A stretch of DNA of 64,000 nt from Bacillota bacterium. Its GTDB lineage: Bacteria; Bacillota; DTU025. Below, one piece after another: positions 83 to 15,650 of the stretch (positions are counted from its first letter, which is position 1; each line of letters begins with the position of its first letter). The notes beneath the pieces are model-generated. The model was not told the origin of the DNA and made no database searches. It was given only the letters and a program-made list of their open reading frames with translations. Position numbers and translations under genes: made by a program. The stretch lies in contig JAGVTS010000124.1 of NCBI GenBank assembly GCA_019136685.1, positions 17,460 to 81,459 on the forward strand, in the 5' to 3' direction.

Positions 83-544
83 ATGGAACACGGCTGCGCC
101 GCGTACTTGGCCCCTGTCATGCTGGGGGGCATGGATTACGACAAACACTCATGGGTTGCGCAGATACAAGGCTGGCTGGCATCCCTTCCCGGCGACTCTC
201 AGCTACCGGCAGGGGCATTCTGCGAGTTGATGCGCGAAGCTTTTGAGGCTGACAGAGCTGGGATGTACCTGAAAAGCCTCTCGATTCTCAGCAAGGCTGA
301 GCGACTCCTGGCCGATTGCGACGCGCTCGATTCCTTCGTCTACGCGATGGGGGGCACTCCGCGCAGGATTCCGACTGATCCCGGCGGCGGCCCGCGGAAC
401 ACGCAACCCGGCCCCACCGGGGGAGGCGGCACGAGCTCGGGTAACCCGTGCGACTCCATGAATGATGATACGTGTTCGCAGTGTATCGGCGGCTTGTGCC
501 TTTACGGCATTCTGAATGCAATATGCGGAGGCGGGTGCTCATAA
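83..544 (+). CDS. hypothetical small protein (153 aa) with Gly-rich linker and Cys-rich hydrophobic C-terminal tail
   Basis: Complete ORF with ATG at 83, in-frame stop at 77-79 and GGAGG about 14 nt upstream. C-terminus reads ...GGGPRNTQPGPTGGGGTSSGNPCDSMNDDTCSQCIGGLCLYGILNAICGGGCS, holding 7 of the protein's 11 Cys in the last ~35 aa. First gene of a co-directional coupled operon. No family recognised. Confidence 0.45.
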   Translation: MEHGCAAYLAPVMLGGMDYDKHSWVAQIQGWLASLPGDSQLPAGAFCELMREAFEADRAGMYLKSLSILSKAERLLADCDALDSFVYAMGGTPRRIPTDPGGGPRNTQPGPTGGGGTSSGNPCDSMNDDTCSQCIGGLCLYGILNAICGGGCS

Positions 545-571: not shown

Positions 572-1225
572 ATGGGAAGGAGAATCGTTGTGGAGTTGCC
601 CGATCCGGTCCCGATCACGCAGGATTTCGATGAACCCATGCACGTGCCCGAGCCCGAATCCGACCCAGGCCAGGATGCCTGCAGCGCAGGCACTACCGCG
701 GACATTGGCGCCGTCCAAAGCAAACTGGACCAGCTCATCGCCATGTTCGCCGACAAGATCCAGTACGATGACCAGAAGGAAAAGGCCTTCGCCAGGCTGT
801 ATGATGAACTCGACTCTTTCAAGCGTGACTTTGTGGAGCGCCGGATGAAAGAGGCCTACACCGATCTGATTCTGCTTTACGACAACATTAAGAACTATAC
901 CGGCGACGACGACGTTATGAGGGAAGAAGGCGCTCTCGCGCGAAGGTACCTTGGCTATGTAATGGAAGAACTCACCGAGGTGCTGGCACGGCGTGGGATA
1001 GAACCCATTGTTGCGGGCCCAGGCGTGGGCCCGGCGCAGTGCGGTTTTGATCCGCAGCTTCAGCGAGCCATACGCACGGTGCCCGCCGAATGCCACGGCG
1101 AGGATGGATGCGTGGTCCGCGTGGTGAAGGACGGGTTTACAAAGGACGGTAAGGTGTTCCGCCCACAATCGGTGATCGTGGCACGCTGGACGGAGCCTCC
1201 GAGCCCTCGAGGAGGCGATGTGTAG
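572..1225 (+). CDS. GrpE-like nucleotide exchange factor
   Basis: C-terminal region matches GrpE architecture: dimerisation helix (YLGYVMEELTEVLARRGIEPI), FDPQLQRA (GrpE FDPxxHxA) and beta-domain VVRVVKDGFTKDGKVFRPQSVIVA (GrpE V..V.Q.GY....RPA.V.V). Stop TAG overlaps the GTG start of the next gene (taGTG). Alternative start GTG at 590 follows GGAAGGAG. Confidence 0.65.
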   Translation: MGRRIVVELPDPVPITQDFDEPMHVPEPESDPGQDACSAGTTADIGAVQSKLDQLIAMFADKIQYDDQKEKAFARLYDELDSFKRDFVERRMKEAYTDLILLYDNIKNYTGDDDVMREEGALARRYLGYVMEELTEVLARRGIEPIVAGPGVGPAQCGFDPQLQRAIRTVPAECHGEDGCVVRVVKDGFTKDGKVFRPQSVIVARWTEPPSPRGGDV

Positions 1226-2757
1226 TGTCTCGTGCAATTGGAATCGATCTTGGCACTACGTTTTCGGCTATCGCTGTGCTCAACGAGTTTGGGAAGGCCG
1301 AGATAATCCCGAACGCGGAAGGAGAGCGCGTCACTCCATCTGTTGCGTACTTCGGCGACGATGACTCTGTGGTGGTCGGTACAGTCGCCAAGAATTCTGC
1401 CGTGAGCGATCCGTACAATGTGGTAGAGTTCATCAAACGGCAGATGGGCAATGCCGACTACGTGTTCACCCACGGCGATGCCGAATACGGCCCGGAACAG
1501 ATTTCGGCGCTCATACTCAAGAAGCTCAAGCAAGACGCTGAAAGGCTGCTCGGCGAGGCGGTCAACGATGCGGTGATCACGGTGCCAGCCTACTTCGACG
1601 ATGCACGCAGGCGCGCCACGATAAACGCGGGCAAGATAGCCGGCCTTAACGTGCTCCGCATAATCAATGAGCCCACGGCGGCGGCTTTGGCCTACGGGCT
1701 TACCAATGCGTCAGAGCAGCGGATAATGGTATATGACCTGGGAGGCGGCACGTTCGACGTGACCGTCATGGACGTGGCCAGAGGCGAGATCACGGTCGTC
1801 GCCACTGACGGCGACCACATGCTGGGCGGCAATGACTTCGACGACCAGATAATGCTCTACGTGAACGATGCCTTCAAACGGGAACACGGAGTCGACCTAC
1901 TTCGGGAGGTGGAGGTCCAGCAAGATCTGCGTCAGCGCGCGGAGGCAGCCAAGAAGACGCTGTCTTCTCGTCCATCGGCCAAGATCAGCATGAGCGCCTC
2001 CGGTAGGCGGCTGACGGTCGAACTTACGCGGGAGCAATTCGAACAGATGACCGGTCACCTTCTCGAGCGCACCAAGATGCTTGTCGAGTCGGTGATGAGC
2101 GAGGCCAAAACGGGATGGGGCCAGGTTGACACCGTGCTCTTGGTGGGAGGATCCACGCGCATGCCCATGGTGCCCCAGATGATCGAGCGCATGTCGGGCA
2201 GGGCCCCGAGCCGGGCCATCAACCCCGACGAGGCCGTGGCCATGGGCGCAGCGGTGCAGGCCGGCATCCTCATGGCCCAGAAGGGCGACGCCGCGATACT
2301 TGCTACCGCTGAAGGGCGCAGGCTTGCCAATACTCGAGTGACTGATGTGACGAGCCACGCTTTTGGGATCGTGTTGATGGATGATCGTACGAAAACCGAA
2401 TACAACCAGGTGATGATCGCCAAGAACACGCCGATTCCCCACGAGGTGCATGACCATTTCTATACGATTTCCAACAACCAGGAGCGCGTCAGGTTCGTAG
2501 TGCTTCAGGGGCAGGACCGCGATCCGGCCAACTGCAATACCATCGGCGAGACTGAACTCGAGTTCGACAGGCCCAAACCCAGGGGCTATCCTGTGCGGGT
2601 GACGTACCAGTATGACGCCAACATGGTGATGCACTGCTATATGGAGGATGAAAAGACCGGTCGCATTGCCGAGTTACATATTTCGCAGTCCGGCAGGATG
2701 AGCGACCGCGAAGTTGAGGCCAAGAAGCGGCTCATGGACCGGGTAAAGGTAGACTGA
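1225..2757 (+). CDS. Hsp70-family ATPase, lid-less paralog A (nucleotide-binding domain plus beta substrate-binding domain only, 510 aa)
   Basis: Hsp70 signatures present: IDLGTTFSA, ITVPAYFDD, NEPTAAALAYG, DLGGGTFDV, LLVGGSTRMP, NPDEAVAMGAA, plus SBD-beta motifs IAKNTPIP and PRGYPVRVTYQYDAN. Ends where the alpha-helical lid would begin; no EEVD tail. Translationally coupled to upstream GrpE-like gene. Confidence 0.8.
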   Translation: MSRAIGIDLGTTFSAIAVLNEFGKAEIIPNAEGERVTPSVAYFGDDDSVVVGTVAKNSAVSDPYNVVEFIKRQMGNADYVFTHGDAEYGPEQISALILKKLKQDAERLLGEAVNDAVITVPAYFDDARRRATINAGKIAGLNVLRIINEPTAAALAYGLTNASEQRIMVYDLGGGTFDVTVMDVARGEITVVATDGDHMLGGNDFDDQIMLYVNDAFKREHGVDLLREVEVQQDLRQRAEAAKKTLSSRPSAKISMSASGRRLTVELTREQFEQMTGHLLERTKMLVESVMSEAKTGWGQVDTVLLVGGSTRMPMVPQMIERMSGRAPSRAINPDEAVAMGAAVQAGILMAQKGDAAILATAEGRRLANTRVTDVTSHAFGIVLMDDRTKTEYNQVMIAKNTPIPHEVHDHFYTISNNQERVRFVVLQGQDRDPANCNTIGETELEFDRPKPRGYPVRVTYQYDANMVMHCYMEDEKTGRIAELHISQSGRMSDREVEAKKRLMDRVKVD

Positions 2758-2780: not shown

Positions 2781-3488
2781 ATGGCAAAGGGCGCTATACA
2801 CAGAGTCTGGGCCGACTACGACGTGACTTACGGCGGGCGTCGGGGCATCATGATTCACGCCTCAATGGCAGTTACCGAACGCAGAAGAGCTCAGTCGGAG
2901 CAGGTACTAGTGATCTACTGGTTCTACTACACCGACGGCAAGCCGGTGCCCGGCGTTTCCAGCGAATTCACCGATAGCGGCGGGAACGCCTGCGCCTATG
3001 AGAGTGTTGATACTCCATATCCATCTACAGGCTACGATGATTTCTCGGTGTTCGTTCCCTATGAGGCGCTGAGCCATCAAGGGTCCGGGTCGTTCAGCGC
3101 GTATGCCAACGCAGCCTTGTTCGAAGGCGACACCGTCATAGCCTGGGCGCCTAGGGTGCTGTCGTTCACGTTGACTATGCAGGACGTTCATGAGCACGAG
3201 AAGGGCGGGCAAACGGGGCCCCAACGCACAACCAGGACCACCACTACTACGACTAGCCCGGATACGGGCGGCTCACGCGGTTTCGGCGGCCAGTCGCCTG
3301 CACAAAGATACCGTCGGATGTTCGGCATACCGCCCGGCGCAAGCCCGGCTCAGATCAAGCAGATTTTGGACCGCGAGTATCAGAAGTACAGAGCGCGGGT
3401 GAATAGCCCTGACCTTTCGGCCAGGCAGGAGGCTGACCGAATGATTGTGGAGATAGGCAAGGCCCGGCAGGCGTTGCTGCCGCACTAG
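2781..3488 (+). CDS. hypothetical protein with C-terminal J-domain-like region (SPD in place of HPD)
   Basis: RBS GGAGCGGGAG lies before the ATG. C-terminal ~60 aa (RYRRMFGIPPGASPAQIKQILDREYQKYRARVNSPDLSARQEADRMIVEIGKARQALL) aligns by eye to the J-domain helix II - loop - helix III pattern, with SPD at the HPD position. N-terminal ~140 aa is an unrecognised domain, followed by a Thr-rich linker (RTTRTTTTTTSPD). Lies between two Hsp70 paralogs. Confidence 0.5.
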   Translation: MAKGAIHRVWADYDVTYGGRRGIMIHASMAVTERRRAQSEQVLVIYWFYYTDGKPVPGVSSEFTDSGGNACAYESVDTPYPSTGYDDFSVFVPYEALSHQGSGSFSAYANAALFEGDTVIAWAPRVLSFTLTMQDVHEHEKGGQTGPQRTTRTTTTTTSPDTGGSRGFGGQSPAQRYRRMFGIPPGASPAQIKQILDREYQKYRARVNSPDLSARQEADRMIVEIGKARQALLPH

Positions 3489-3505: not shown

Positions 3506-5038
3506 ATGAAGGCAGTTGGAATCGACCTTGGCACTACGTTTTCGGCTTTGGCTGTGCTGAACGATTATGGCAATCCCGAAATCGTGCCGAACAGGGAGGG
3601 CGAGCGCATCACGCCGTCGGTGGCGCTGTTCGATGCGGAGAACCAGGTCACTGTGGGGGCGATTGCCAAGAACACCGCGGTAAGCGATCCGGAGAACGTG
3701 GTCGAGTTCATCAAGAGGCAGATGGGCAACCCGGACTTCGTTTTCGTCCACAGCGGCAGGGAGTTCCGCCCGGAAGACATCTCTGCGATGATCATCAAAA
3801 AGCTGAAGGCCGATGCCGAGACGCTTCTCGGCGCCGAGCTTCCCAGCGCAGTAATAACAGTGCCGGCCTATTTCGACGACGCCCGCAGGCAGGCTACCAT
3901 GAATGCGGGAAGAATCGCTGGGTTCAACGTGCTCGGGATAGTGAACGAACCTACAGCGGCGGCGCTGGCCTACGGCATGAGCAACCCCGATGTTCGTCAG
4001 CGGATCCTCGTGTACGACTTGGGCGGCGGCACCTTCGACGTGACGCTTATGGAAGTGACGGAGGGCAAGATCCGCGTGCTTGCCACCGACGGCGACCATC
4101 AGCTGGGCGGCAAGGACTTTGACGACAAGATAATCATGTACTGCAACGACGAGTTCAAGCGCGAGCACGGCATCGACCTTCTTGACGACCTTGAGGCTCT
4201 GCAGGACTTGCGCCAGCGGGCCGAGTCGGCCAAGAAGACTCTCTCGTCCAGAGACTCAGCCAAGATCACCATAAGCGCCCAGGGAGCGAGGCTCACTGTA
4301 GAGATGGCCCGCAAGCAGTTCGAGGAGATGACCGCAGAGTTGCTTGTACGTTCGGAAATGCTCCTGGATGCGGTGATGGGGGCGGCGGAACTAGGGTGGG
4401 CCGATGTCGATCAGGTGCTCCTGGTCGGGGGCATGACTCGCATGCCGGCGGTTATGGAGATGATTCGCAGGGTGAGCGGTAAGGAGCCCACTCTATCAGT
4501 CAACCCAGACGAAGCAATCGCCCTGGGGGCAGCCATATATGCCGGCATCATACTGGCCGGTCGGGGCGATCCTGAGGTGGTATTGAGCGAAGCAGGGCGC
4601 CGGCTGCGCGATACCGTAATCGAGGACGTCACGAGCCACAGCTACGGTGTGCTGCTTGTCGACTCCAAAACAGGGAGCGACATCAATGAGATAATGATCG
4701 CCAAGAACTCCCCCATCCCGGCCGCGCGGACCGCCACGTACTACGTACATGAAGATGGGCAATCGTGCGTGGAACTCGTGGTGCTGCAGGGCGAAGATAG
4801 AAACCCGGCCAACTGCAATGAGATCGGCAGGGTGGTGTTGCCGCTCGGCGGCTCGAAACCCCGCAATTACCCCATAGAAGTAACCTACGAGTACGACGTC
4901 AACATGATAATGCATGCGACCATCAAGGATCCGCAGACGGGGGCCCAAAAGTCGCTCCAGATTACGCAGCAAGGACGGCTGACCAACGCAGAGGTTGAGG
5001 AAAAGCGGGAGACCATGCAAGAAGTCGAGGTAGTTTAA
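3506..5038 (+). CDS. Hsp70-family ATPase, lid-less paralog B (510 aa)
   Basis: Same length as and colinear with paralog A, roughly two-thirds identical by eye. Same Hsp70 motifs: IDLGTTFSA, DLGGGTFDV, LLVGGMTRMP, NPDEAIALGAA, IAKNSPIP, PRNYPIEVTYEYDVN. RBS GGGGGAGG upstream. Stop TAA overlaps the ATG of the next gene (TAATG). Confidence 0.8.
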   Translation: MKAVGIDLGTTFSALAVLNDYGNPEIVPNREGERITPSVALFDAENQVTVGAIAKNTAVSDPENVVEFIKRQMGNPDFVFVHSGREFRPEDISAMIIKKLKADAETLLGAELPSAVITVPAYFDDARRQATMNAGRIAGFNVLGIVNEPTAAALAYGMSNPDVRQRILVYDLGGGTFDVTLMEVTEGKIRVLATDGDHQLGGKDFDDKIIMYCNDEFKREHGIDLLDDLEALQDLRQRAESAKKTLSSRDSAKITISAQGARLTVEMARKQFEEMTAELLVRSEMLLDAVMGAAELGWADVDQVLLVGGMTRMPAVMEMIRRVSGKEPTLSVNPDEAIALGAAIYAGIILAGRGDPEVVLSEAGRRLRDTVIEDVTSHSYGVLLVDSKTGSDINEIMIAKNSPIPAARTATYYVHEDGQSCVELVVLQGEDRNPANCNEIGRVVLPLGGSKPRNYPIEVTYEYDVNMIMHATIKDPQTGAQKSLQITQQGRLTNAEVEEKRETMQEVEVV

Positions 5039-6183
5039 TGGAGGCAGGGGCAGGGACGGAGCGGGGCGCACGTACCCGGGCGCTTTACGAGCAACTGCTG
5101 GCGCCCGTGGCCCGGCAAGTCGACGCGGAACTGACGAATGAAGGGCACAACCTTCCGGCTGAACTGCGCGACATGTACGACTACGCTGTCGGCGGCGGTA
5201 TGAGATTCAGGCCGTGCCTGATGTACCTGGCGTACCTTGTGTGTAGTGCGGGCATGGGCGGGGAGTGCGGGCGTGATGGAGGCGATGGCTGCGGCAGCTG
5301 CATTGGCCTCGATAACCTGATTCAGCTTGCGTCAGCTGTGGAGTTGCTCCACAAAGCGTCGTTGGTTCACGACGACCTCATCGACGGCGACACTCTTCGC
5401 AGGGGGCGGCAGTCGTTTCACGAGGCATTCGGGAGCGAGCGCGCCGTAGTAATGGGTGACTTGCTAGTGGCAATGGCTCACGATGTGGTTGAGCGGATGC
5501 GTTCGGTCTTGCCGACCGGAGTGTACTCCCAAATCCGCTCCCGGTTCAACAAGGCCCATATCGACCTGTGCCGAGGTGAGTTGCTGGAGTTGGTCGCTTC
5601 GCTTTGCGAGCGCGCTCTGGCACGCGATTACGTGGATAGGGTGATCGAAGGAAAGACCGCGTCGCTGATGGAGCAGTCGATGGCCATGGGGGCGATCATC
5701 GCGGGCGCGCCCGCGGCTCGTGTGGATGCCTTGGCACGCTACGGACGGTGCATGGGGTTCGTGTTCCAGACTATCAATGATATAAACAACCTGACAGGGT
5801 TCGACCTAGGCGTCAAGGGGCAGGCCATGACAGACCTGGCGCTGGGCCGTGTGGGATACCCTGTTCTGGGCCTTGCGATGATCGCGGGCGCTGAAGAGAC
5901 TGGCCTCTTTGCACGGGCCCCGGGGATTAGGCGAGTTGAGGGCTCGGGCGACGCCCTGCGTGAGCTGGTTCAGGGGGGGCAGCTGTGCGTGTGGCTCGAG
6001 GGGATAATATGCGAATATGCGGGCCGAGCGCGACAGGCGCTGGAGGCCCTGCCGGAATGTGGCGCGCGCGACGCCCTGGACGCGATAGGACGCGAGATGT
6101 TCGAATCGTGGTTCTGGAATCCCGAAGCGCGCGTCGATAGCCTGGGAGGCGGATGCAGTGAAGAGTCTCCGCCCGCTAACTGA
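5038..6183 (+). CDS. polyprenyl synthetase (trans-isoprenyl diphosphate synthase) family protein with degenerate second Asp-rich motif
   Basis: GGGMRFRP (IPPS GGKRxRP), intact first Asp-rich motif LVHDDLIDGDTLRRGRQ, GKTASL. Second motif reads FQTINDINNL where FQxxDDxxD is expected. Cys/Gly-rich insertion (GGECGRDGGDGCGSCIG) before the first motif. Coupled to the upstream Hsp70 gene. Confidence 0.65.
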   Translation: MEAGAGTERGARTRALYEQLLAPVARQVDAELTNEGHNLPAELRDMYDYAVGGGMRFRPCLMYLAYLVCSAGMGGECGRDGGDGCGSCIGLDNLIQLASAVELLHKASLVHDDLIDGDTLRRGRQSFHEAFGSERAVVMGDLLVAMAHDVVERMRSVLPTGVYSQIRSRFNKAHIDLCRGELLELVASLCERALARDYVDRVIEGKTASLMEQSMAMGAIIAGAPAARVDALARYGRCMGFVFQTINDINNLTGFDLGVKGQAMTDLALGRVGYPVLGLAMIAGAEETGLFARAPGIRRVEGSGDALRELVQGGQLCVWLEGIICEYAGRARQALEALPECGARDALDAIGREMFESWFWNPEARVDSLGGGCSEESPPAN

Positions 6184-6760
6184 GTCGGCCCTTGCCGCGG
6201 CTGTGTGTGTAGTTGTGTGGGCGCTGTCACTGGGTATTCCGGGGCTGGGGGGCTATGTGAGATACATGACGCCGAGCTTTATCGCGATCGTGGGAGCGCG
6301 CCACGGAGCGAGATGGTCGCTGGCGGCGTGCGCAGTGGCGAGCGCCGGTGTAGCGATCACGCTGGGGCCGACCCAGTTCCTCATCTGCCTCCTTCTGGGC
6401 GCCCCCATGGCGGTGCTTCTTCCCATGATGAACCGGCGCGCCAAGCCTGCGCCCTGGTGGGCGCTGACGTCAGTCATCTACGCCGTGGCCGTTACAGTTC
6501 TGGGCTGCGGGTTGGCCGCGCTCTACGGTGCAGGACTTCGCGACTATGGGTCGGCGACTGCGTCAGCCAACTACGCTGCTTTGGGCGGCATGTGGGCTCG
6601 GCTAGGCGTGGAGCGGAGCGAGCTTGCCGCGTTCGCCGGCCGATCAGCGTGGGTCATCGTCCCGGGAGTCGGCGTCGTCAGCGGAGTCATGATGTACATG
6701 ATCAACGTAGTACCGTATAGAATCGGCCTCAGAACCCTCGACCGGACGCGCCGCCGGTAG
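6158..6760 (+). CDS. polytopic membrane protein, unknown function
   Basis: 200 aa, about 5 predicted hydrophobic helices, basic C-terminus. Overlaps the end of the preceding gene by 26 nt in another frame. Last gene of the co-directional block. Confidence 0.4.
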   Translation: MKSLRPLTESALAAAVCVVVWALSLGIPGLGGYVRYMTPSFIAIVGARHGARWSLAACAVASAGVAITLGPTQFLICLLLGAPMAVLLPMMNRRAKPAPWWALTSVIYAVAVTVLGCGLAALYGAGLRDYGSATASANYAALGGMWARLGVERSELAAFAGRSAWVIVPGVGVVSGVMMYMINVVPYRIGLRTLDRTRRR

Positions 6761-7238
6761 CGCCGGCCCTTGCGCCTCCGGCGGTCGCAGCCTGTGCAAA
6801 TGCCGATAGATCCACATCGGCAGATGATATCCGCACCATGGCTTGTCCAGGCTGAATAGTTATCCCCGCCATGTCCAGCGACCTTAGCGCCCCGCGGCTT
6901 GCCTGAACGAGATCGATCGTTATCACGCCGCGACCCAGGTAGCTTACGCCCTGGGGCAGGCGCGAGGAGATCCGGTTGATGAGCACATCCATAGGACCGG
7001 TTCCCAGCCCCATCGGACCGGATACACGCACTGTCAGGCTGGCGCCGCGCGCGGCGACCACCTCTACTCGGAAAGACGGATGAATGGGCACAGGCGCGCG
7101 GACGGTAGTGTCGACAACCACTACCCCTTGTTCGAATCTCAGACCCCTCACAACGAACTCGGGAGACGATGCAACGCTGGCCACGACCTGCTTCACTTCC
7201 CGATCGTCCACAGCAAGCACCAGCGACTCCATTAGCAT
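6729..7238 (-). CDS. hypothetical protein (possible PilZ-like beta-barrel protein)
   Basis: 169-aa ORF with reasonable protein-like composition. Weak resemblance to PilZ/YcgR-type domains (RxxxR ... D.S..G-like spacing). Not confidently assigned. Confidence 0.35.
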   Translation of the reverse strand: MLMESLVLAVDDREVKQVVASVASSPEFVVRGLRFEQGVVVVDTTVRAPVPIHPSFRVEVVAARGASLTVRVSGPMGLGTGPMDVLINRISSRLPQGVSYLGRGVITIDLVQASRGALRSLDMAGITIQPGQAMVRISSADVDLSAFAQAATAGGARAGATGGASGRGF

Positions 7239-7245
7239 CTCAAGC

Positions 7246-8250
7246 TCACTCCTTTCGGGTTCTCGCGCTCAGCAGGCGCCTTACCCGGGCGTCCAGCCCG
7301 AGCAGGATGATGTTCTCTACTATGGGGCGATAGCGGTGCAGCGTCAGCTGCGACAACGCGTTGCGCGCTTCCACATTGCATCGGGCGATCACGTACGACA
7401 GGGCATCTCCCGTGCCGCGCGAGAGCTCAGCGGAATCTTGTTCTGCCATCATGCAGGCGCGCAGGCCGTTAAAAGCCCCGCGTCTCACGTCGCGCGGTAA
7501 GTCCTCCAGGCAGTCGCCTAGATAGACCATGCGACCCACGGCTCGGCCCAGGCGCGCCAAGGATACACAACCCTCATCCAGGCCGGCCAGAATGCCTGTG
7601 TACGCCAACACGTGCGCAAGCCCGTCGGCCGTGGGCGCGGTGAGTTCGTCGAACGTGATACTTCCCGGCGCGGCGCTTGCCTCAGCTTCCAGCTCGGCCA
7701 GGCGATCGTCTGCCTGCAGCAGCGGGGCGATATCGAAAGAGCGCTCAGCGAGAACATGCCGGGCCTTGGCAAACTGTCGGCGGCCCATGGCTCTGGCCGG
7801 GCGGGCTAGGAGCGATCCGTCGCGCACCGAGTCCAGGCTCTTCAGTTCTGCCATGCACACTGTGAGCGCAGCGCCCAGCGACATGAAGTCCTCATGCTCA
7901 CTGATAATGGCGAACCTGCGGAATGCCGACACAGGGCAGAAAGTCCTCCGAAAAGACGGGTCGGGGTCTGCCTGAGCCGACATGAGCAGGACTAGCAAAG
8001 TAGACTCGAAATTGGTGAGCGCGCGGCAGAGTGTGCCGTACTCCCGTGCAAGCGCGAAACAAAGCCCACAGTAGTGGGCTGTGTAGTGATGGCTTTGCCT
8101 GAGTGTAAGGTCGAGCTTCTGAGGCCTTACATATCCAAACAACCGGGCACTCTCCCGCCGACGTGATCTGCTTCCCATCGAGAGTTTTCTCCCTGCCGAC
8201 CGCTTGTTCCTCCATAGTCGGCGGGATCCGGATGATAGAGCAAGAAGCAC
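7246..8250 (-). CDS. hypothetical protein with conserved Y-V-R-P ... HHYxxHYCGLC motif
   Basis: 334-aa ORF with N-terminal FGYVRPQKLDLTLRQSHHYTAHYCGLCFAL Cys/His motif, and a C-terminal region rich in regulatory-looking helices. Family not confidently recognised. Confidence 0.45.
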   Translation of the reverse strand: MLLALSSGSRRLWRNKRSAGRKLSMGSRSRRRESARLFGYVRPQKLDLTLRQSHHYTAHYCGLCFALAREYGTLCRALTNFESTLLVLLMSAQADPDPSFRRTFCPVSAFRRFAIISEHEDFMSLGAALTVCMAELKSLDSVRDGSLLARPARAMGRRQFAKARHVLAERSFDIAPLLQADDRLAELEAEASAAPGSITFDELTAPTADGLAHVLAYTGILAGLDEGCVSLARLGRAVGRMVYLGDCLEDLPRDVRRGAFNGLRACMMAEQDSAELSRGTGDALSYVIARCNVEARNALSQLTLHRYRPIVENIILLGLDARVRRLLSARTRKE

Positions 8251-8260
8251 CTGGGCATGA

Positions 8261-9409
8261 CTAGCCGTTCGGCCCGGTGGTCGAGGCGGGCGAGCCTGGA
8301 GGAGGCGCAGGGCACACCAGGATCGTGCCGGGGGCTATTGTCCTGGGATCCGTTATCCCGTTCATGGCGAGTATCTCGCGCATCCTTTCGTCAGTAGCCC
8401 TGCCGTAGAGGCGTTTGGCGATCACCGCCACCGACTCGCCCGGCGCCACTGTTACGGTTACAGTGCCGGGCGCGCCGGGCTCGGCAGTGGGCCGCGAGGC
8501 ATTGCCCTGGGCAGTGGCTTGCTGGGCCTGAGGGGTGCGCTGCGGCGTAGCCGGCAACTTAGCCTCAGGCGTAACCTTGGGCCGTGGTTCTGCCTGTGGC
8601 TCAGGCCCGGCCTGCAGCTGGGGATGAGCCTGCAACTCAGCTCGGGGCTCAGGCTGTGGTTGGGCTGCGAGCTGTTCTACCCGGCTGCGCGGCGTCCAAA
8701 TCTGTGCCGCCAGAGCGATTGCGGCGATGATCAGGGCGATGGAAGCGAGGCGCAGGGCCAGTGATGTGTCGTTGCTCGGGCGCTGGAGCAGCCAGCGCAA
8801 TCTGCGCAGCCAGGTCATGGGCGAGAGCTTGGCACACTGGCGCAGTCCGTCACCGGCTTGCCTGCGCGACGCCTGGGCCGCCGACCCAGACAGCGACTGC
8901 CCTGAGGATTCGCCGACGGGATCAAACATGTAGTACCCTGGGAATGGCAGCAGCGTTTCTCCGTCCATGTAGAAGAACGACGCCTGTTGCCTCACTGCAT
9001 CGACGATCAGCGCAACCCCTGCTCCCAAAGGTGAGAGCGACTTATGCACCATGGCGTCCTCTTCGGACGCCGACACGCCCGAGCCAGAGTGTGTGTGGAA
9101 CCATCCTATGATCTCTCTGCCTGCGTGTGAGGCCTTGGCCTCCCGGCGCAGGTTGTCAGACAGGGCAATTAGGAGTCCCGGAGGTTCTGCCCTGAGCGGG
9201 ACGTCCGGCAACTCCACTGTGTCGGACACCATGATGATGATTCCATCACTATCACTGGTCAGCCTGCCCACGAGAAGCCCGGCGCGGTCAGCCTGCTGTG
9301 AGCCTGCACTGCCCGTCTTGCCCAGTAGGCCTTCGATTACTGCACGACTCGCCATCACCCTGGACGGCATGCCCCGGGTCTGTACCCTCTCGATCAATGC
9401 GATCACCAT
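8261..9409 (-). CDS. JAB/MPN (JAMM) metalloprotease domain protein with TM segment and C-terminal LysM domain
   Basis: JAMM motif HTHSGSGVSASEED (H-x-H-x7-S-xx-D). Central hydrophobic helix (LASIALIIAAIALAAQIW). Pro/Gln/Ala-rich linker. C-terminal LysM-like GESVAVIAKRLYG...ILAMNGITDPRTIAPGTILVCP. Confidence 0.7.
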   Translation of the reverse strand: MVIALIERVQTRGMPSRVMASRAVIEGLLGKTGSAGSQQADRAGLLVGRLTSDSDGIIIMVSDTVELPDVPLRAEPPGLLIALSDNLRREAKASHAGREIIGWFHTHSGSGVSASEEDAMVHKSLSPLGAGVALIVDAVRQQASFFYMDGETLLPFPGYYMFDPVGESSGQSLSGSAAQASRRQAGDGLRQCAKLSPMTWLRRLRWLLQRPSNDTSLALRLASIALIIAAIALAAQIWTPRSRVEQLAAQPQPEPRAELQAHPQLQAGPEPQAEPRPKVTPEAKLPATPQRTPQAQQATAQGNASRPTAEPGAPGTVTVTVAPGESVAVIAKRLYGRATDERMREILAMNGITDPRTIAPGTILVCPAPPPGSPASTTGPNG

Positions 9410-12427: not shown

Positions 12428-12512
12428 TCAGTGGATGCACCCACGAGGATTCGGTTGGCGAGGGCGGACCGCACCGGCAACCCCCATGGGTTTTACCAGC
12501 ATGCCCCATCAC

Positions 12513-12563
12513 CTGTGGGTTTTTCGTACGGCTTTCGGCGAGGCCGTACTGAAAACCCCACGG
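12513..12563 (+). terminator. long imperfect hairpin (about 20 bp stem with nested perfect GTACGGC/GCCGTAC stem) downstream of oxidoreductase gene
   Basis: CTGTGGGTTTTTCGTACGGC-TTTCGGCGAG-GCCGTACTGAAAACCCCACGG. No U-tract, so terminator function is uncertain; it could be an RNA structural element. Confidence 0.3.
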
Positions 12564-13512
12564 TTCTGAACATGCAGGCTTCGCCGAACGCAACCGGCGG
12601 TAGGGCCTCGCGACCCAGGCGGTCGGCGCTCGACAAACGCGCAGCTATAGCAGCTGGCATAGCATGGCGCTTCTAGTGCGGATCCTCGATCGTCGCCGCG
12701 GGGCCTCCAGAGTTCCCAAAGCGCCTTCCGATTTCGCCCGACCGCGCCGAACCGTCCCGAATAGCATGTGCGCCCACCTGGTGCGGAGGAATAGGGCTGG
12801 GCGCCACATGCCAGTACCGGAAGGGGGTCTTGATGCACTCTGGGGCATCCTGTTCGTTTTTGAGTAGGTTTTTCGAGCAACCTATACGGATTCTACGTGG
12901 CTTGGTGGGTGCAAGTTATCTGAATTCGCGCCGGCAACGGCGCATCCTTTTGCTGGAGCCAGGCCCGTGGCAAATCCGCAGGCAGAGACGGGTTACACAA
13001 TATGGTCACGCGCGCGTATCTCCCGAGCCTCCCCGCGAGGGCCCCGAGACGACCTCCGATTCCCCAGTAAGCCCCAAATTCGCCCGATTGCCTCCCTGGC
13101 CCGTCAAAACCTAGTACTTTCTGAATAGGCTCCGCGGAAAACCGTACTCTTTTCTCATAGGTTCGCTAACGCCCTGCTAAACACGGTTTTGCCCAAAGGC
13201 CTGCGTAAGGTCGCTTTCGCCGACAACTGACGCCTCCGAGCGTAGGCAGGCCCCCGCGCATCCTTTCCGGCGATGTGGGTAGTGCTGCAGAAGTCTTGGT
13301 ACCGGCTGGGTTAGCCATAGCAGTTCTAGGTGGGCCTGCAGATATCCGCAATCTCCGGAAACCGCTCCGATGTGTGCAAAGCCTGTAATTGGCAGCGACC
13401 TGCCGTGCCGTCGCCGTGATTCGGCCCACACCCATTTCATCCTGCGTGATGCCCAATTCGATCTCGCACGAAGGCCTCGCATCAGGTGAAGAAGGAATCT
13501 GTGCACCAGGGG

Positions 13513-13526
13513 CGAATATATGTTCG
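13513..13526 (+). promoter_or_regulatory. LexA (DinR) Cheo-box-like operator upstream of uvrB
   Basis: CGAATATATGTTCG matches the Gram-positive SOS box consensus CGAACRNRYGTTCG with one mismatch. It sits about 30 nt upstream of an extended -10 (TGCTATAAT, 13555-13563) and about 95 nt upstream of the uvrB start. Confidence 0.5.
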
Positions 13527-13619
13527 GCCGCGAGCGTTCGAGGCTCGCGGCTCGTGCTATAATTGTGGGGGTGCGGCGTTCTGTGCGCTGCTCGCCGATG
13601 GGTACGGGAGTGATGAGGG

Positions 13620-15650
13620 GTGCCTGATTTCCAGCTCAAGTCGGACTTCACTCCGACGGGAGATCAGCCTAGGGCCATAGATGAGCTCGTTCAGGGCGTG
13701 CTCTCCGGCATGCGGGGGCAGGTGCTTCTGGGCGTAACGGGCAGCGGCAAGACATTTACCATGGCCAACGTGATCATGCGTCTGGCCCGCCCTGCGCTGG
13801 TCATTGCGCACAACAAGACGCTCGCGGCGCAGCTGGCTGCGGAGTTTCGAGAGTTCTTCCCGAATAACGCAGTCCACTATTTCGTCAGCTACTACGACTA
13901 CTACCAGCCGGAGGCGTATATACCCCAGTCTGACACCTACATCGAGAAGGATGCGCAGATAAATGACGAGATTGATAGGATGAGGCACGCGGCCACAGCG
14001 GCACTGGTCGAGCGGCGCGATGTTGTCATCGTGGCCAGCGTGTCCTGCATATACGGGCTAGGCATGCCCGAGGAATATCTAAAGCAGGCGGTGGTTGTGA
14101 GGCGCGGCGAGGCGTCTGACCGCGACCGCCTTCTGCGCAAGTTGGTCGCCATTCAGTACAGCAGAAACGACATAGGAATTGCTCGCGGCACGTTCAGAGT
14201 GCGCGGCGATGTGGTGGAGATAGTCCCTGCGAGTGGAGAACAAGCGATCAGAATCGAGTTCTTTGGCGACGAAATCGACCGTATCACCGATGTTGACCTC
14301 ATAACCGGAGAAATGCTGGGCGAGAGGGAATCTGCTTTCATCTATCCAGCGTCTCACTGGGTGACCAACCAGGAGCGGATGCAGGCTGCGATCGCAACAA
14401 TTGAGGAAGAACTGGAGGCTAGGCTCGCGGAGTTGAAAGGCGCAGGCAAGCTCCTTGAAGCTCAGCGACTGGAGCAGCGCACTCGATTCGATCTGGAGAT
14501 GATGCAGGAGGTAGGGTACTGCTCGGGGATCGAGAACTACTCACGCCACCTGGCCGCGAGAGAGGCGGGCAGCGCTCCTGCGACTCTCATCGACTACTTC
14601 CCCGACGATTACCTCATGTTCATCGACGAGTCGCACGTGACGGTGCCTCAGATACGCGCGATGTACAATGGCGATCGGTCGCGCAAAGAGAGCCTTGTGG
14701 AATATGGTTTTAGGCTGCCCTCTGCCTACGATAATCGGCCCTTGCGTTTTGACGAGTTCACGCGGCGCGTCAACCAGGTGATCTTCGTATCCGCCACTCC
14801 GGCCGAATGGGAAAGATCCATGAGTGGTCAAGTAGTGGAGCAGGTCATACGCCCGACCGGCCTGGTAGATCCGGCGGTTGAGCTCAAGCCCGTGCGGGGG
14901 CAGGTCGACGACTTGATAGGCCAGATCCGTCAGACGGCGGACTGCGGATACCGGACGTTGGTGACAACGCTCACCAAGAAGATGGCCGAGGACCTCACGG
15001 ACTACCTCCGCGAGCTGGGGATCAGAGTGAGGTATCTGCACTCTGAAATTGACACGTTGGAACGGATCGAGATACTCAGGGGGCTACGCCTGGGCGAGTT
15101 CGATGTTCTGGTGGGCATAAACCTGCTCCGCGAGGGTCTGGATCTGCCTGAGGTTGGGCTCGTGGCTATCCTCGACGCCGATAAAGAAGGGTTCCTGCGG
15201 TCGTCAACGTCTCTCATACAGACTATTGGCAGGGCCGCCCGGAATGTGGATGGACGCGTCATCATGTATGCCGATGAGGTCACAAGATCCATGCGCGAAG
15301 CCATAGGTGAAACTGACCGGCGTCGTGCCATACAGATAGCGCACAACAAGACGTGGGGTATCACCCCCGAGTCTATCAAGAAGGCAGTCCGCGACCTATC
15401 CGAGATACAGCGTGCCGCAGGCGCCGAGGGCACGCGCGCGACCGCGGCCCGAGGCGCGGCAGGCGCAATGGGCGGGGCTGACATAGGGGCTCTGCAGGAA
15501 GTCGAGGGGATGGACGAGCGAGAGCTCGCCAGGCTCATCAAGAACCTAGAAGAGCAGATGAAGAAGGCAGCCGGCCTGCTTGAGTTCGAGCGGGCGGCGG
15601 AAATACGGGATCGCATCAGAGATCTTAGGCGGAGGTTCGTCCAGCTTTGA
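13620..15650 (+). CDS. uvrB: excinuclease ABC subunit B
   Basis: GVTGSGKTF Walker A, DESH helicase motifs, C-terminal UVR domain ([19 protein letters not shown]). 676 aa, GTG start. Confidence 0.95.

Follow-up and report, generated by a model that had tools for sequence, protein, structure and literature searches.

Asparagine-variant isoprenyl diphosphate synthase homologs coupled to DUF5685 proteins and cysteine-string tails: a possible bacterial protein prenylation system

To our knowledge, prenylation of protein cysteines has been treated as a eukaryotic trait, done by alpha/beta-toroid enzymes. Another group of prenyltransferases (ComQ, PalQ, the P domain of ChrPC and Ord1) has the isoprenoid-synthase fold and keeps an intact first aspartate-rich motif (FARM) for the prenyl donor. 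In ComQ the second motif has the form N-D-x-x-x, needed for an acceptor other than isopentenyl diphosphate (IPP). This pseudo second aspartate-rich motif (pseudo-SARM) must be NDxxx or GDxxx, and changing N to D drastically reduces activity (PMC5331326). Here we describe a locus within a 64,000-nt stretch of a Bacillota genome, hereafter the window (GenBank assembly GCA_019136685.1, contig JAGVTS010000124.1, positions 17,460 to 81,459, forward strand), that encodes a trans-isoprenyl diphosphate synthase (IPPS) homolog with the same pairing of motifs, a FARM of DDLID and a pseudo-SARM of NDINN. As with ComQ, a candidate substrate is encoded nearby. Three genes are central:

5038..6183 (+), IPPS-like gene; 381 aa, trans-isoprenyl diphosphate synthase fold, ND/WFW clade (described below)
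7246..8178 (-), DUF5685 gene; C37/C40/C81, D116xxxD120, D222xxxD226xxxD230; PF18937, E 2e-41
83..544 (+), Cys-string tail protein; 153 aa, a helical N-domain and a Pro/Gly linker, then CDSMNDDTCSQCIGGLCLYGILNAICGGGCS

The IPPS-like gene, DUF5685 and a Cys-string tail are coupled across genomes, and in the window's lineage chaperone genes join them. Our tentative reading, which we still consider somewhat more probably wrong than right, is that the IPPS-like gene belongs to a system that prenylates Cys strings and anchors them in the membrane, served here by its own Hsp70, J-protein and GrpE.

The IPPS-like protein can be set beside several described families. With canonical medium- and long-chain trans-IPPS (GGPPS 1wy0, the HexPPS large subunit 3aqb_B, HepT 9kp1_B, OPPS, DPS) it shares the PF00348 domain, the fold, the FARM, RRG, KT and FQ motifs and small residues at positions -5/-4 upstream of the FARM; it differs in having NDINN, Lys106 and WFW, in the loss of the GGK Lys, Tyr199 and the C-terminal Arg, and in reaching no equivalog cut-off. 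As in the heteromeric synthases (HepS/HepT, HexA/HexB, and GPPS with its large and small subunits, LSU and SSU), adjacent genes appear to encode two IPPS-fold proteins, one near-canonical and one highly divergent. DUF5685, however, is unrelated in sequence to HepS and HexA and has DxxxD motifs of its own together with three invariant Cys, and the "large subunit" here has NDINN instead of a canonical SARM. Class I terpene synthases also combine a first DDxxD with a second metal motif starting N-D, whose Asn would ligate Mg2+, but the pattern (N,D)Dxx(S,T)xxxE is absent from the window protein: NDINNLTGF (N247–F255) has Asn at +4 and Phe at +8, with an acidic residue at +9 only, and both sequence and fold are those of an IPPS, not a terpene cyclase. 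ComQ-type enzymes differ in that the window protein is far closer to canonical IPPS in sequence and fold, retains many of the basic residues at diphosphate-binding positions, and has a second IPPS-fold protein and chaperones as partners.

The motifs of the IPPS-like protein, and two segments of lesser conservation, are located as follows:

5194..5214 (+), GGMRFRP; the Lys of canonical GGKRxRP is Met (M55)
5245..5307 (+), Cys/Gly-rich insertion, aa 70–90; only in relatives P0001–P0013
5344..5385 (+), LLHKASLVHDDLID; clade-specific K106 and A107, then the intact FARM (D112, D113, D116)
5650..5667 (+), GKTASL, aa 205–210; K206/T207, allylic diphosphate-binding region
5764..5790 (+), FQTINDINN, aa 243–251; pseudo-SARM (N247, D248, N250, N251)
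6109..6117 (+), WFW; end of the last helix, standing in for the conserved C-terminal Arg of canonical enzymes
6145..6180 (+), GGGCSEESPPAN; disordered C-terminal tail, with predicted local distance difference test (pLDDT) scores below 50; the last 22 residues are disordered in the AlphaFold model

The FARM DDLID (aa 112–116, nt 5371–5385) conforms to DDx(2-4)D, and the RRG at aa 121–123 is canonical. At nt 5776–5790 the codons AAT GAT ATC AAC AAC spell NDINN rather than the canonical DDxxD. The canonical first motif, GKTASL and the degenerate FQTINDINN all lie where the first-pass annotation of this DNA had placed them. The protein matches PF00348 (polyprenyl_synt) over aa 42–280 (E 2e-42, 145.6 bits). 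Sixteen NCBIfam models matched, all far below their cut-offs, so that no equivalog (GGPPS, HepT, OPPS, FPPS and others) could be assigned; the best score, 153.2 bits against a cut-off of 450, was to NF041169, the Family 2 encapsulin cargo polyprenyl transferase. The AlphaFold model has a mean pLDDT of 86.4, and Foldseek aligned it to long-chain and medium-chain trans-IPPS with template-modelling (TM) scores of 0.83–0.87, normalised by target length. By sequence the closest solved structures are P. horikoshii GGPPS (E 7.5e-55), then GPPS-LSU, HexPPS-B and OPPS. No second IPPS was found elsewhere in the window.

Eleven contigs from independent samples in NCBI, JGI, ENA and Logan encode an identical IPPS-like protein, with gene order unchanged throughout, and ND-x-N-N is kept in all homologs down to ~30% identity. 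The Asn residues are therefore not a sequencing artefact, and both sequencing error and sporadic substitution are ruled out. Sporadic Asn in an ordinary long-chain synthase was one of the outcomes that the first-pass annotation had named as refuting it; instead the Asn is clade-wide.

A word-indexed search for relatives returned orthologs at 40–100% identity and then a sharp fall to ~33% identity (131 bits). N-D-x-N-N and a C-terminal WFW are present in all sequences down to relative P0022, and the matches that follow carry DDxxD. A HMMER scan with the clade profile covered 1.84 billion cluster representatives, and 151 sequences were inspected: the window protein and the 150 highest-ranking representatives of 50% clusters. 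ND-type sequences made up 57 of the 151 and ranked first, with canonical DD enzymes starting at ~205 bits. In a scan of one genome per species, members came from Bacillota metagenome-assembled genomes (MAGs), Halanaerobiales, Pseudomonadota including Candidatus Thiomargarita nelsonii, and Planctomycetota. A neighbor-joining tree of 128 sequences, built without bootstrap values and indicative only, placed the ND sequences in one group with no DD sequence nested inside, and two ND sequences near the root. In these comparisons N-D-x-N-[N/D/S] and the C-terminal WFW define a deep, old, multi-phylum clade apart from the canonical DD enzymes. The degenerate second motif, to which the first-pass annotation had drawn attention, is conserved, defines the clade and has the form that ComQ requires.

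Comparing the ND clade column by column with 53 canonical DD sequences separates what was kept from what was changed. Position 247 is N in 100% of the clade and D in 100% of the DD enzymes, and position 250 is N in 91% of the clade and L in 91% of the DD enzymes. Just upstream of the FARM, K106 is 95–100% conserved in the clade where DD enzymes have T or N, and A107 stands where Phe is usual. The Lys of GGKRxRP, K in 100% of the DD sequences, is R or M in the clade; Tyr199, found in 96% of DD enzymes, is lost; and so is the C-terminal Arg (94% R at aligned position 357), where W-F/Y-W is gained, with W358 and W360 invariant in the clade alignment. By contrast with these changes, the FARM, R121/R122, K206, F243-Q244 and D248 do not vary among at least 28 diverse clade sequences, and K206 is invariant in every alignment that we made. 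The Mg2+/allylic-diphosphate site is kept (D112/D113/D116, R121, K206, F243-Q244, D248). Well-studied FPPS enzymes use the GGK Lys and a basic C-terminal tail to bind IPP and close over it. We take K55 (the GGK Lys) and the C-terminal basic residue to correspond to those IPP-binding positions, and because of this match the acceptor side appears to be the part remodeled. A107 and S108 occupy positions -5 and -4 upstream of the FARM, where chain length is limited in studied enzymes. We read the alignment as showing strong selection on the donor (allylic diphosphate/Mg2+) site and an acceptor side that has probably been rebuilt, becoming less acidic and more aromatic.

Several variants of the ND-type enzyme were noted. 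A very abundant fusion of ~600 aa (L045–L118 among the fetched loci, which we number with L; e.g., L049:5176-6990 and L073:5161-6978) joins an N-terminal Cys-rich DUF116 domain to an ND-type polyprenyl synthetase with the motifs FHKASLVHDD, RYG in place of RRG, and FQILNDLKDW. It forms a sister group nested within the ND clade in the neighbor-joining tree, and radical-SAM (S-adenosylmethionine), 4Fe-4S and prenyltransferase-toroid genes recur near it. In relative P0177 (559 aa) the ND-type enzyme is fused to an HD phosphohydrolase domain.

The constant neighbor of the ND/WFW gene is DUF5685, which the first-pass annotation had missed. It adjoins the ND/WFW gene in 22 of 25 loci (19 of 22 related loci and all three long metagenomic loci), and the two frames often overlap. 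The three loci without an adjacent DUF5685 are two truncated contigs and the Pirellulaceae MAG locus L021, whose ND-type enzyme (L021:1229-2284) has no DUF5685. The AlphaFold model of the window DUF5685 has a pLDDT of 89.6, and its top-ranked PDB matches by Foldseek are almost all isoprenoid-synthase-fold enzymes, with modest E-values (~1e-3) but a consistent picture, at TM 0.5–0.64: MoeN5, OPPS, SPS (solanesyl-PP synthase), HexPPS, HepPPS, Ord1 and a CrtM-like protein. In an hhalign comparison with the IPPS alignment (E 5e-5), D116xxxD120 falls on the FARM and D222xxxD226 on positions 1 and 5 of the SARM. Invariant in DUF5685 are C37, C40, C81 and N237. On this modeling, DUF5685 is a cryptic protein of the isoprenoid-synthase fold, and the locus encodes two paralogous IPPS-fold proteins, both with plausible metal-binding motifs.

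The top Foldseek match of the DUF5685 model and its closest solved fold is the moenomycin prenyltransferase MoeN5 (E 9e-4, TM 0.54–0.64). MoeN5 is likewise a divergent IPPS fold, and it transfers a prenyl group to an acceptor other than IPP. The two differ in that identity is only ~15%, the context is not of moenomycin type, and DUF5685 has a three-Cys site and a beta-hairpin.

The tail is the third member of the association. In the window it ends the 153-aa protein, whose last 34 residues hold six Cys and no Trp, and which has no Pfam or NCBIfam match. The first-pass annotation had pointed to a Cys-tail protein in the same operon; it is indeed there, and such tails accompany DUF5685 across phyla in three architectures. 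When all fetched loci were scanned, 35 of the 36 with DUF5685 also had a Cys-string tail; several of them duplicate the window or one another. The only one without a tail is a 4-kb contig, and every DUF5685 locus with sufficient flanking sequence has one. In the window's Bacillota clade, and in L042, the tail is on a separate protein, and DUF5685 of that clade is tail-less. Orthologs of the Cys-tail protein (~145 aa, with the Cys-rich end kept) occupy the same position in L012, L014–L017 and L022, the Bacillota-clade loci that reach far enough upstream; in L020 the ortholog sits between Hsp70 and the gene for a 235-aa protein. Elsewhere (L010, L024–L026, L028–L032) the tail is fused to DUF5685 as a long Cys-rich C-terminal extension, e.g., ...CCDCDDLITTAICCDAADCDCDALECLTSGNPCELLECFC. 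This architecture was found in Proteobacteria, Halanaerobiales, Planctomycetota and an unassigned metagenomic contig (L010), and in Thiomargarita a terminal transmembrane helix follows the Cys-rich stretch of DUF5685.

In the third architecture, that of clostridial-type loci, the gene right after DUF5685 encodes a protein with a hydrophobic Cys-string end (...CDGMDCCTAMMCMNCLCGGCR, ...FCWNLCAMILFFRFCFCWI):

L037:6869-7474, L038:6795-7382, L121:4827-5435, L119:4851-5546 and L120:4851-5525, clostridial Cys-string proteins

Three of these five have a DnaJ domain, one of them (L037) with a clear TPR match as well; the two that lack DnaJ have at most weak TPR-like matches. A clostridial DnaJ protein with a Cys string looks like a bacterial counterpart of the eukaryotic cysteine-string protein. 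Homology between the N-domain of the window's Cys-tail protein and the clostridial DnaJ/TPR proteins was not detected (hhalign E 0.25). Among all these tails the Cys spacing is not conserved, and the tails are hydrophobic. Together with the transmembrane-helix variant, this fits membrane anchoring or lipidation better than a fixed metal site.

Two further Cys-bearing segments belong to the IPPS-like protein itself. The Cys/Gly-rich insertion reported in the first-pass annotation exists, but it is not conserved: it occurs solely in relatives with 63% identity or more, it differs among them (Cys is missing from it in P0004, and P0012 has a shorter version), and in the AlphaFold model it is a low-confidence loop joining two helices (block pLDDT ~62, below 50 at aa 76–78). 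Since it is lineage-restricted, variable and of low model confidence, we regard it as a lineage-specific decoration and not a conserved functional element, and a functional role for it was ruled out. At the other end of the protein, the C-terminus (SLGGGCSEESPPAN) resembles the end of the Cys-tail protein (AICGGGCS; CGGGCS), and the same segment in close relatives (the orthologs in L012–L014) reads DCLGGGCSEEC, with three Cys. This tail might be a second, self-contained acceptor site.

In the window the IPPS-like gene is embedded in a chaperone operon:

572..1225 (+), GrpE-like nucleotide exchange factor; PF01025, E 1.2e-9; divergent
1225..2757 (+), Hsp70 paralog A; 510 aa, short C-terminus; PF00012, E 6e-143, profile 1–509 of 599
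2781..3488 (+), 235-aa protein; N-terminal ~130 aa without detectable family, then a probable J-like C-terminal domain
3506..5038 (+), Hsp70 paralog B; 510 aa; PF00012, E 7e-141
6158..6760 (+), DUF2232-like polytopic membrane protein; PF09991, E 5e-9, 36.1 bits against a gathering score of 27.8
6729..7238 (-), 169-aa protein; downstream of DUF5685, no family match; conserved in the Bacillota clade only

The order Cys-tail, GrpE-like, Hsp70, 235-aa protein, Hsp70, IPPS-like, DUF2232-like is kept down to 47% identity, and continues on the opposite strand with the 169-aa protein and then DUF5685. Start and stop codons overlap at three operon junctions; the start of the IPPS-like gene overlaps the stop of the upstream Hsp70 gene (ATGA). 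The DUF2232-like gene overlaps the IPPS-like stop by 26 nt and is kept in Bacillota-clade loci. Both Hsp70s are exactly 510 aa and match the Pfam model only to ~510–516 of 599. The J-like segment of the 235-aa protein has SPD in the window, HPD in three orthologs and NPD in L020; it aligned with the clostridial DnaJ domains by hhalign at E 2.3e-4 and a probability of 45%, and Pfam DnaJ matched the L020 ortholog alone, at only 12.5 bits. A DnaJ link recurs independently in the clostridial DUF5685 loci.

Where DUF5685 carries the tail, a small polytopic membrane protein is encoded 3' of the IPPS-like gene:

L025:7710-8324, L028:3929-4552, L029:10932-11354, L030:2897-3319 and L010:2359-3009, small polytopic membrane proteins

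Three of these five gave weak matches to Peptidase_A24 (the prepilin peptidase family). With one of the five just above the gathering score, that assignment is marginal and we did not adopt it. The DUF2232-like protein showed no detectable homology to the Peptidase_A24-like proteins, nor to the membrane protein whose gene follows the J gene in Clostridia.

Other neighbors are less constant. A class I SAM methyltransferase (L001:4026-4775) lies 270 bp upstream of the Cys-tail gene, just before window position 1; its match to a daptide-type methyltransferase for biosynthesis of RiPPs (ribosomally synthesized and post-translationally modified peptides) is sub-threshold, 119.9 bits against a cut-off of 175, and it is absent from the orthologous loci at 47% identity. 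Beside DUF5685 is a gene for a 382-aa protein (8261-9409, minus strand) with weak JAB/MPN and LysM matches and a repeat rich in Pro, Gln and Glu (PQPEPRAELQAHPQLQAGPEPQAEPRP); no relatives but the closest (L012, L014) share this protein. The ~1.2 kb at 12430-13620, from a GFO/IDH/MocA oxidoreductase to uvrB, holds only short overlapping open reading frames (ORFs) and gave nothing in Rfam. PADLOC found no anti-phage defense match among 10 proteins, Rfam no structured RNAs or riboswitches in the window, and promoter and terminator scans no more sites than in shuffled sequences. We found no literature on DUF5685, DUF116, bacterial cysteine-string DnaJ proteins, a cluster of Hsp70 with polyprenyl synthetase, or the ND/WFW clade.

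All that we say of function is drawn from sequence, predicted structure and gene neighborhood. In the proposed prenylation and anchoring system, the IPPS-like enzyme would bind a medium or long allylic diphosphate and ionize it at the intact FARM, with the small A107 and S108 leaving space for a long prenyl chain; ordinary chain elongation with IPP would not be performed. Together with DUF5685, possibly as a heterodimer, it would prenylate Cys thiols in the tail of the 153-aa protein, and prenylation would turn the hydrophobic Cys-rich tail into a lipid anchor. The two Hsp70s, the J-like protein and GrpE may hold or deliver the unfolded hydrophobic tail, or may be the machine being anchored, and the DUF2232-like protein would act as partner at the membrane. 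The transferase may be the IPPS-like protein, as its ComQ-like ND motif suggests; alternatively, the role of this protein would be to provide or hold the prenyl donor that DUF5685 uses. The ND motif and the rebuilt acceptor side argue for the ND enzyme as transferase. The clostridial loci, with DUF5685 and Cys-string proteins in the absence of an ND enzyme, suggest that DUF5685 may be the transferase and the ND enzyme a donor-handling or partner subunit. The protein-prenyltransferase role put forward in the first-pass annotation is accordingly favored by the ND motif and by the linkage to the Cys tail, but DUF5685 is at least as good a candidate for the transferase.

At the level of the system there is an analogy with the eukaryotic chaperones DNAJC5, whose palmitoylated Cys string works with Hsc70, and Ydj1/DNAJA, which is farnesylated: a J-protein/Hsp70 pair is tied to a possibly lipidated Cys string. 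We claim no homology. The lipid here would be a prenyl group from IPPS-fold enzymes, not the product of a DHHC enzyme or an alpha/beta farnesyltransferase, and the window's lineage has its Cys string on one protein and its J-like domain on another. Palmitoylation of the DNAJC5 Cys string is described in PMC10903463.

A number of observations weigh against prenylation of the tails by this system. All characterized trans-IPPS-like prenyltransferases (ComQ, ChrPC-P, PalQ, Ord1) target Trp, not Cys (PMC13290415, a 2026 review), and no Trp occurs in the Cys-rich tail proposed as acceptor here. The predicted fold of the IPPS-like protein is indistinguishable from that of ordinary long-chain synthases, and the protein retains R56, R58, H105, R121/R122 and K206 at canonical diphosphate-binding positions. 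Because clostridial loci have DUF5685 and Cys-string proteins without an ND-type neighbor, the ND enzyme is not generally required for the fate of the tail. The Cys-rich tails could instead bind metal, and the J-like assignment of the 235-aa protein, though probable, is weak. Some ND-type relatives have neighbors that point to small-molecule terpenoid metabolism: a squalene-hopene-cyclase-like gene adjoins the DUF116 fusion in 43 of 62 loci; on the P0021 contig, where the surroundings look archaeal (eIF2-alpha, S27e), the ND-type enzyme is next to an LGT-family gene and one for a geranylgeranyl reductase; and in L021 a nearby 184-aa ORF is IPP isomerase-like by eye.

Such neighbors lend themselves to the chief rival explanation, which we rate as unlikely yet deserving serious attention: that the IPPS-like protein and DUF5685 form a two-subunit small-molecule isoprenoid synthase, similar to HepS/HepT or HexA/HexB, or a terpene-synthase-like pair. 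It would make an unusual prenyl diphosphate or hydrocarbon lipid, and the tails would anchor or regulate the complex without being prenylated. The second subunit that such a synthase calls for is encoded next door in 22 of 25 loci by an often overlapping gene for a further IPPS-fold protein; Foldseek matches of the IPPS-like model include the heteromeric large subunits HexPPS 3aqb_B and HepPPS 9kp1_B, while the DUF5685 model matches 9kp1_A and 3aqb chains. The many basic residues retained at diphosphate-binding positions also speak for it, and Asn can ligate Mg2+, as it does in the NSE motif of class I terpene synthases. Yet known heteromeric large subunits keep both DDxxD motifs and the window protein does not, and the K55 Lys and C-terminal Arg of canonical enzymes are gone. 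A two-subunit synthase would also leave unexplained why a Cys-string tail, in three architectures, is the one constant companion of DUF5685, and why DnaJ and Hsp70 are linked to it.

That the protein is simply an ordinary medium- or long-chain prenyl diphosphate synthase (for a menaquinone side chain, for example), tolerating Asn and lying in a chaperone operon by chance, we consider improbable. The match to P. horikoshii GGPPS, the TM scores, the intact FARM, RRG, KT and FQ, and A107/S108 at chain-length-limiting positions would all suit such an enzyme. Mutants of FPPS in the first Asp of the SARM, however, lose several orders of magnitude in kcat, and here the Asn is invariant across a deep clade from which the GGK Lys, Tyr199 and C-terminal Arg are missing as well. 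The NCBIfam cut-off is not approached (153 against 450 bits), and the context holds no quinone or carotenoid genes but a conserved association with DUF5685 and a Cys string. We give about as little credence to the idea that the IPPS-like protein lacks catalytic activity and is a subunit for prenyl binding, regulation or scaffolding, which would serve DUF5685 or the Hsp70 machine as a lipid-binding adaptor. Non-catalytic small subunits do exist in heteromeric GPPS, HexPPS and HepPPS, and the degenerate second motif, with Met for K55 in the window's lineage, could be seen as decay of the same kind; but the non-catalytic subunits that we know of have lost the FARM as well. The invariance of the FARM, R121/R122, K206, F243-Q244 and D248 indicates selection on the active site, which weakens the non-catalytic option entertained in the first-pass annotation without removing it. 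Membership in the ComQ lineage (family IPR033965), its other suggestion, looks unlikely: sequence and predicted fold are those of an ordinary medium- or long-chain trans-IPPS, and Pfam and NCBIfam scans of the locus found no ComX-like Trp precursor and no comP or comA, the neighbors being GrpE, Hsp70, DUF2232 and DUF5685. A BLASTP comparison with an unverified B. subtilis ComQ sequence matched in the FARM region only (E 0.18), and ComQ orthology was rejected on genomic context. A ComQ-type Trp prenyltransferase maturing a secreted peptide pheromone or RiPP would account for the FARM with an ND pseudo-SARM and might claim the daptide-type match of the upstream methyltransferase, but it lacks a com-like context, a Trp in the tail and, in the 47%-identity loci, the methyltransferase; we think it very improbable indeed.

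Whatever the function, an ancient multi-phylum Asn-variant clade now annotated as 'polyprenyl synthetase family protein' or 'GGPP synthase' is set apart, DUF5685 gains an assigned fold and a set of candidate active-site residues, cysteine-string tails come to light on bacterial DnaJ proteins, and a dedicated Hsp70/GrpE/J set is linked to isoprenoid-fold enzymes. If the product is a small lipid, the ND/WFW and DUF116-fused enzymes would still be a new catalytic variant of a textbook family. It is possible, though on balance doubtful, that ND/WFW and DUF5685 proteins carry out native bacterial protein S-prenylation, placing long prenyl chains on Cys strings and so tethering a J-protein/Hsp70 machine, or DUF5685 itself, to the membrane. 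Should that be true, the system would be a prokaryotic counterpart of DNAJC5 and Ydj1 and would hold the first trans-IPPS-like prenyltransferase to act on Cys, not Trp; a system prenylating Cys in this way would be new biology.

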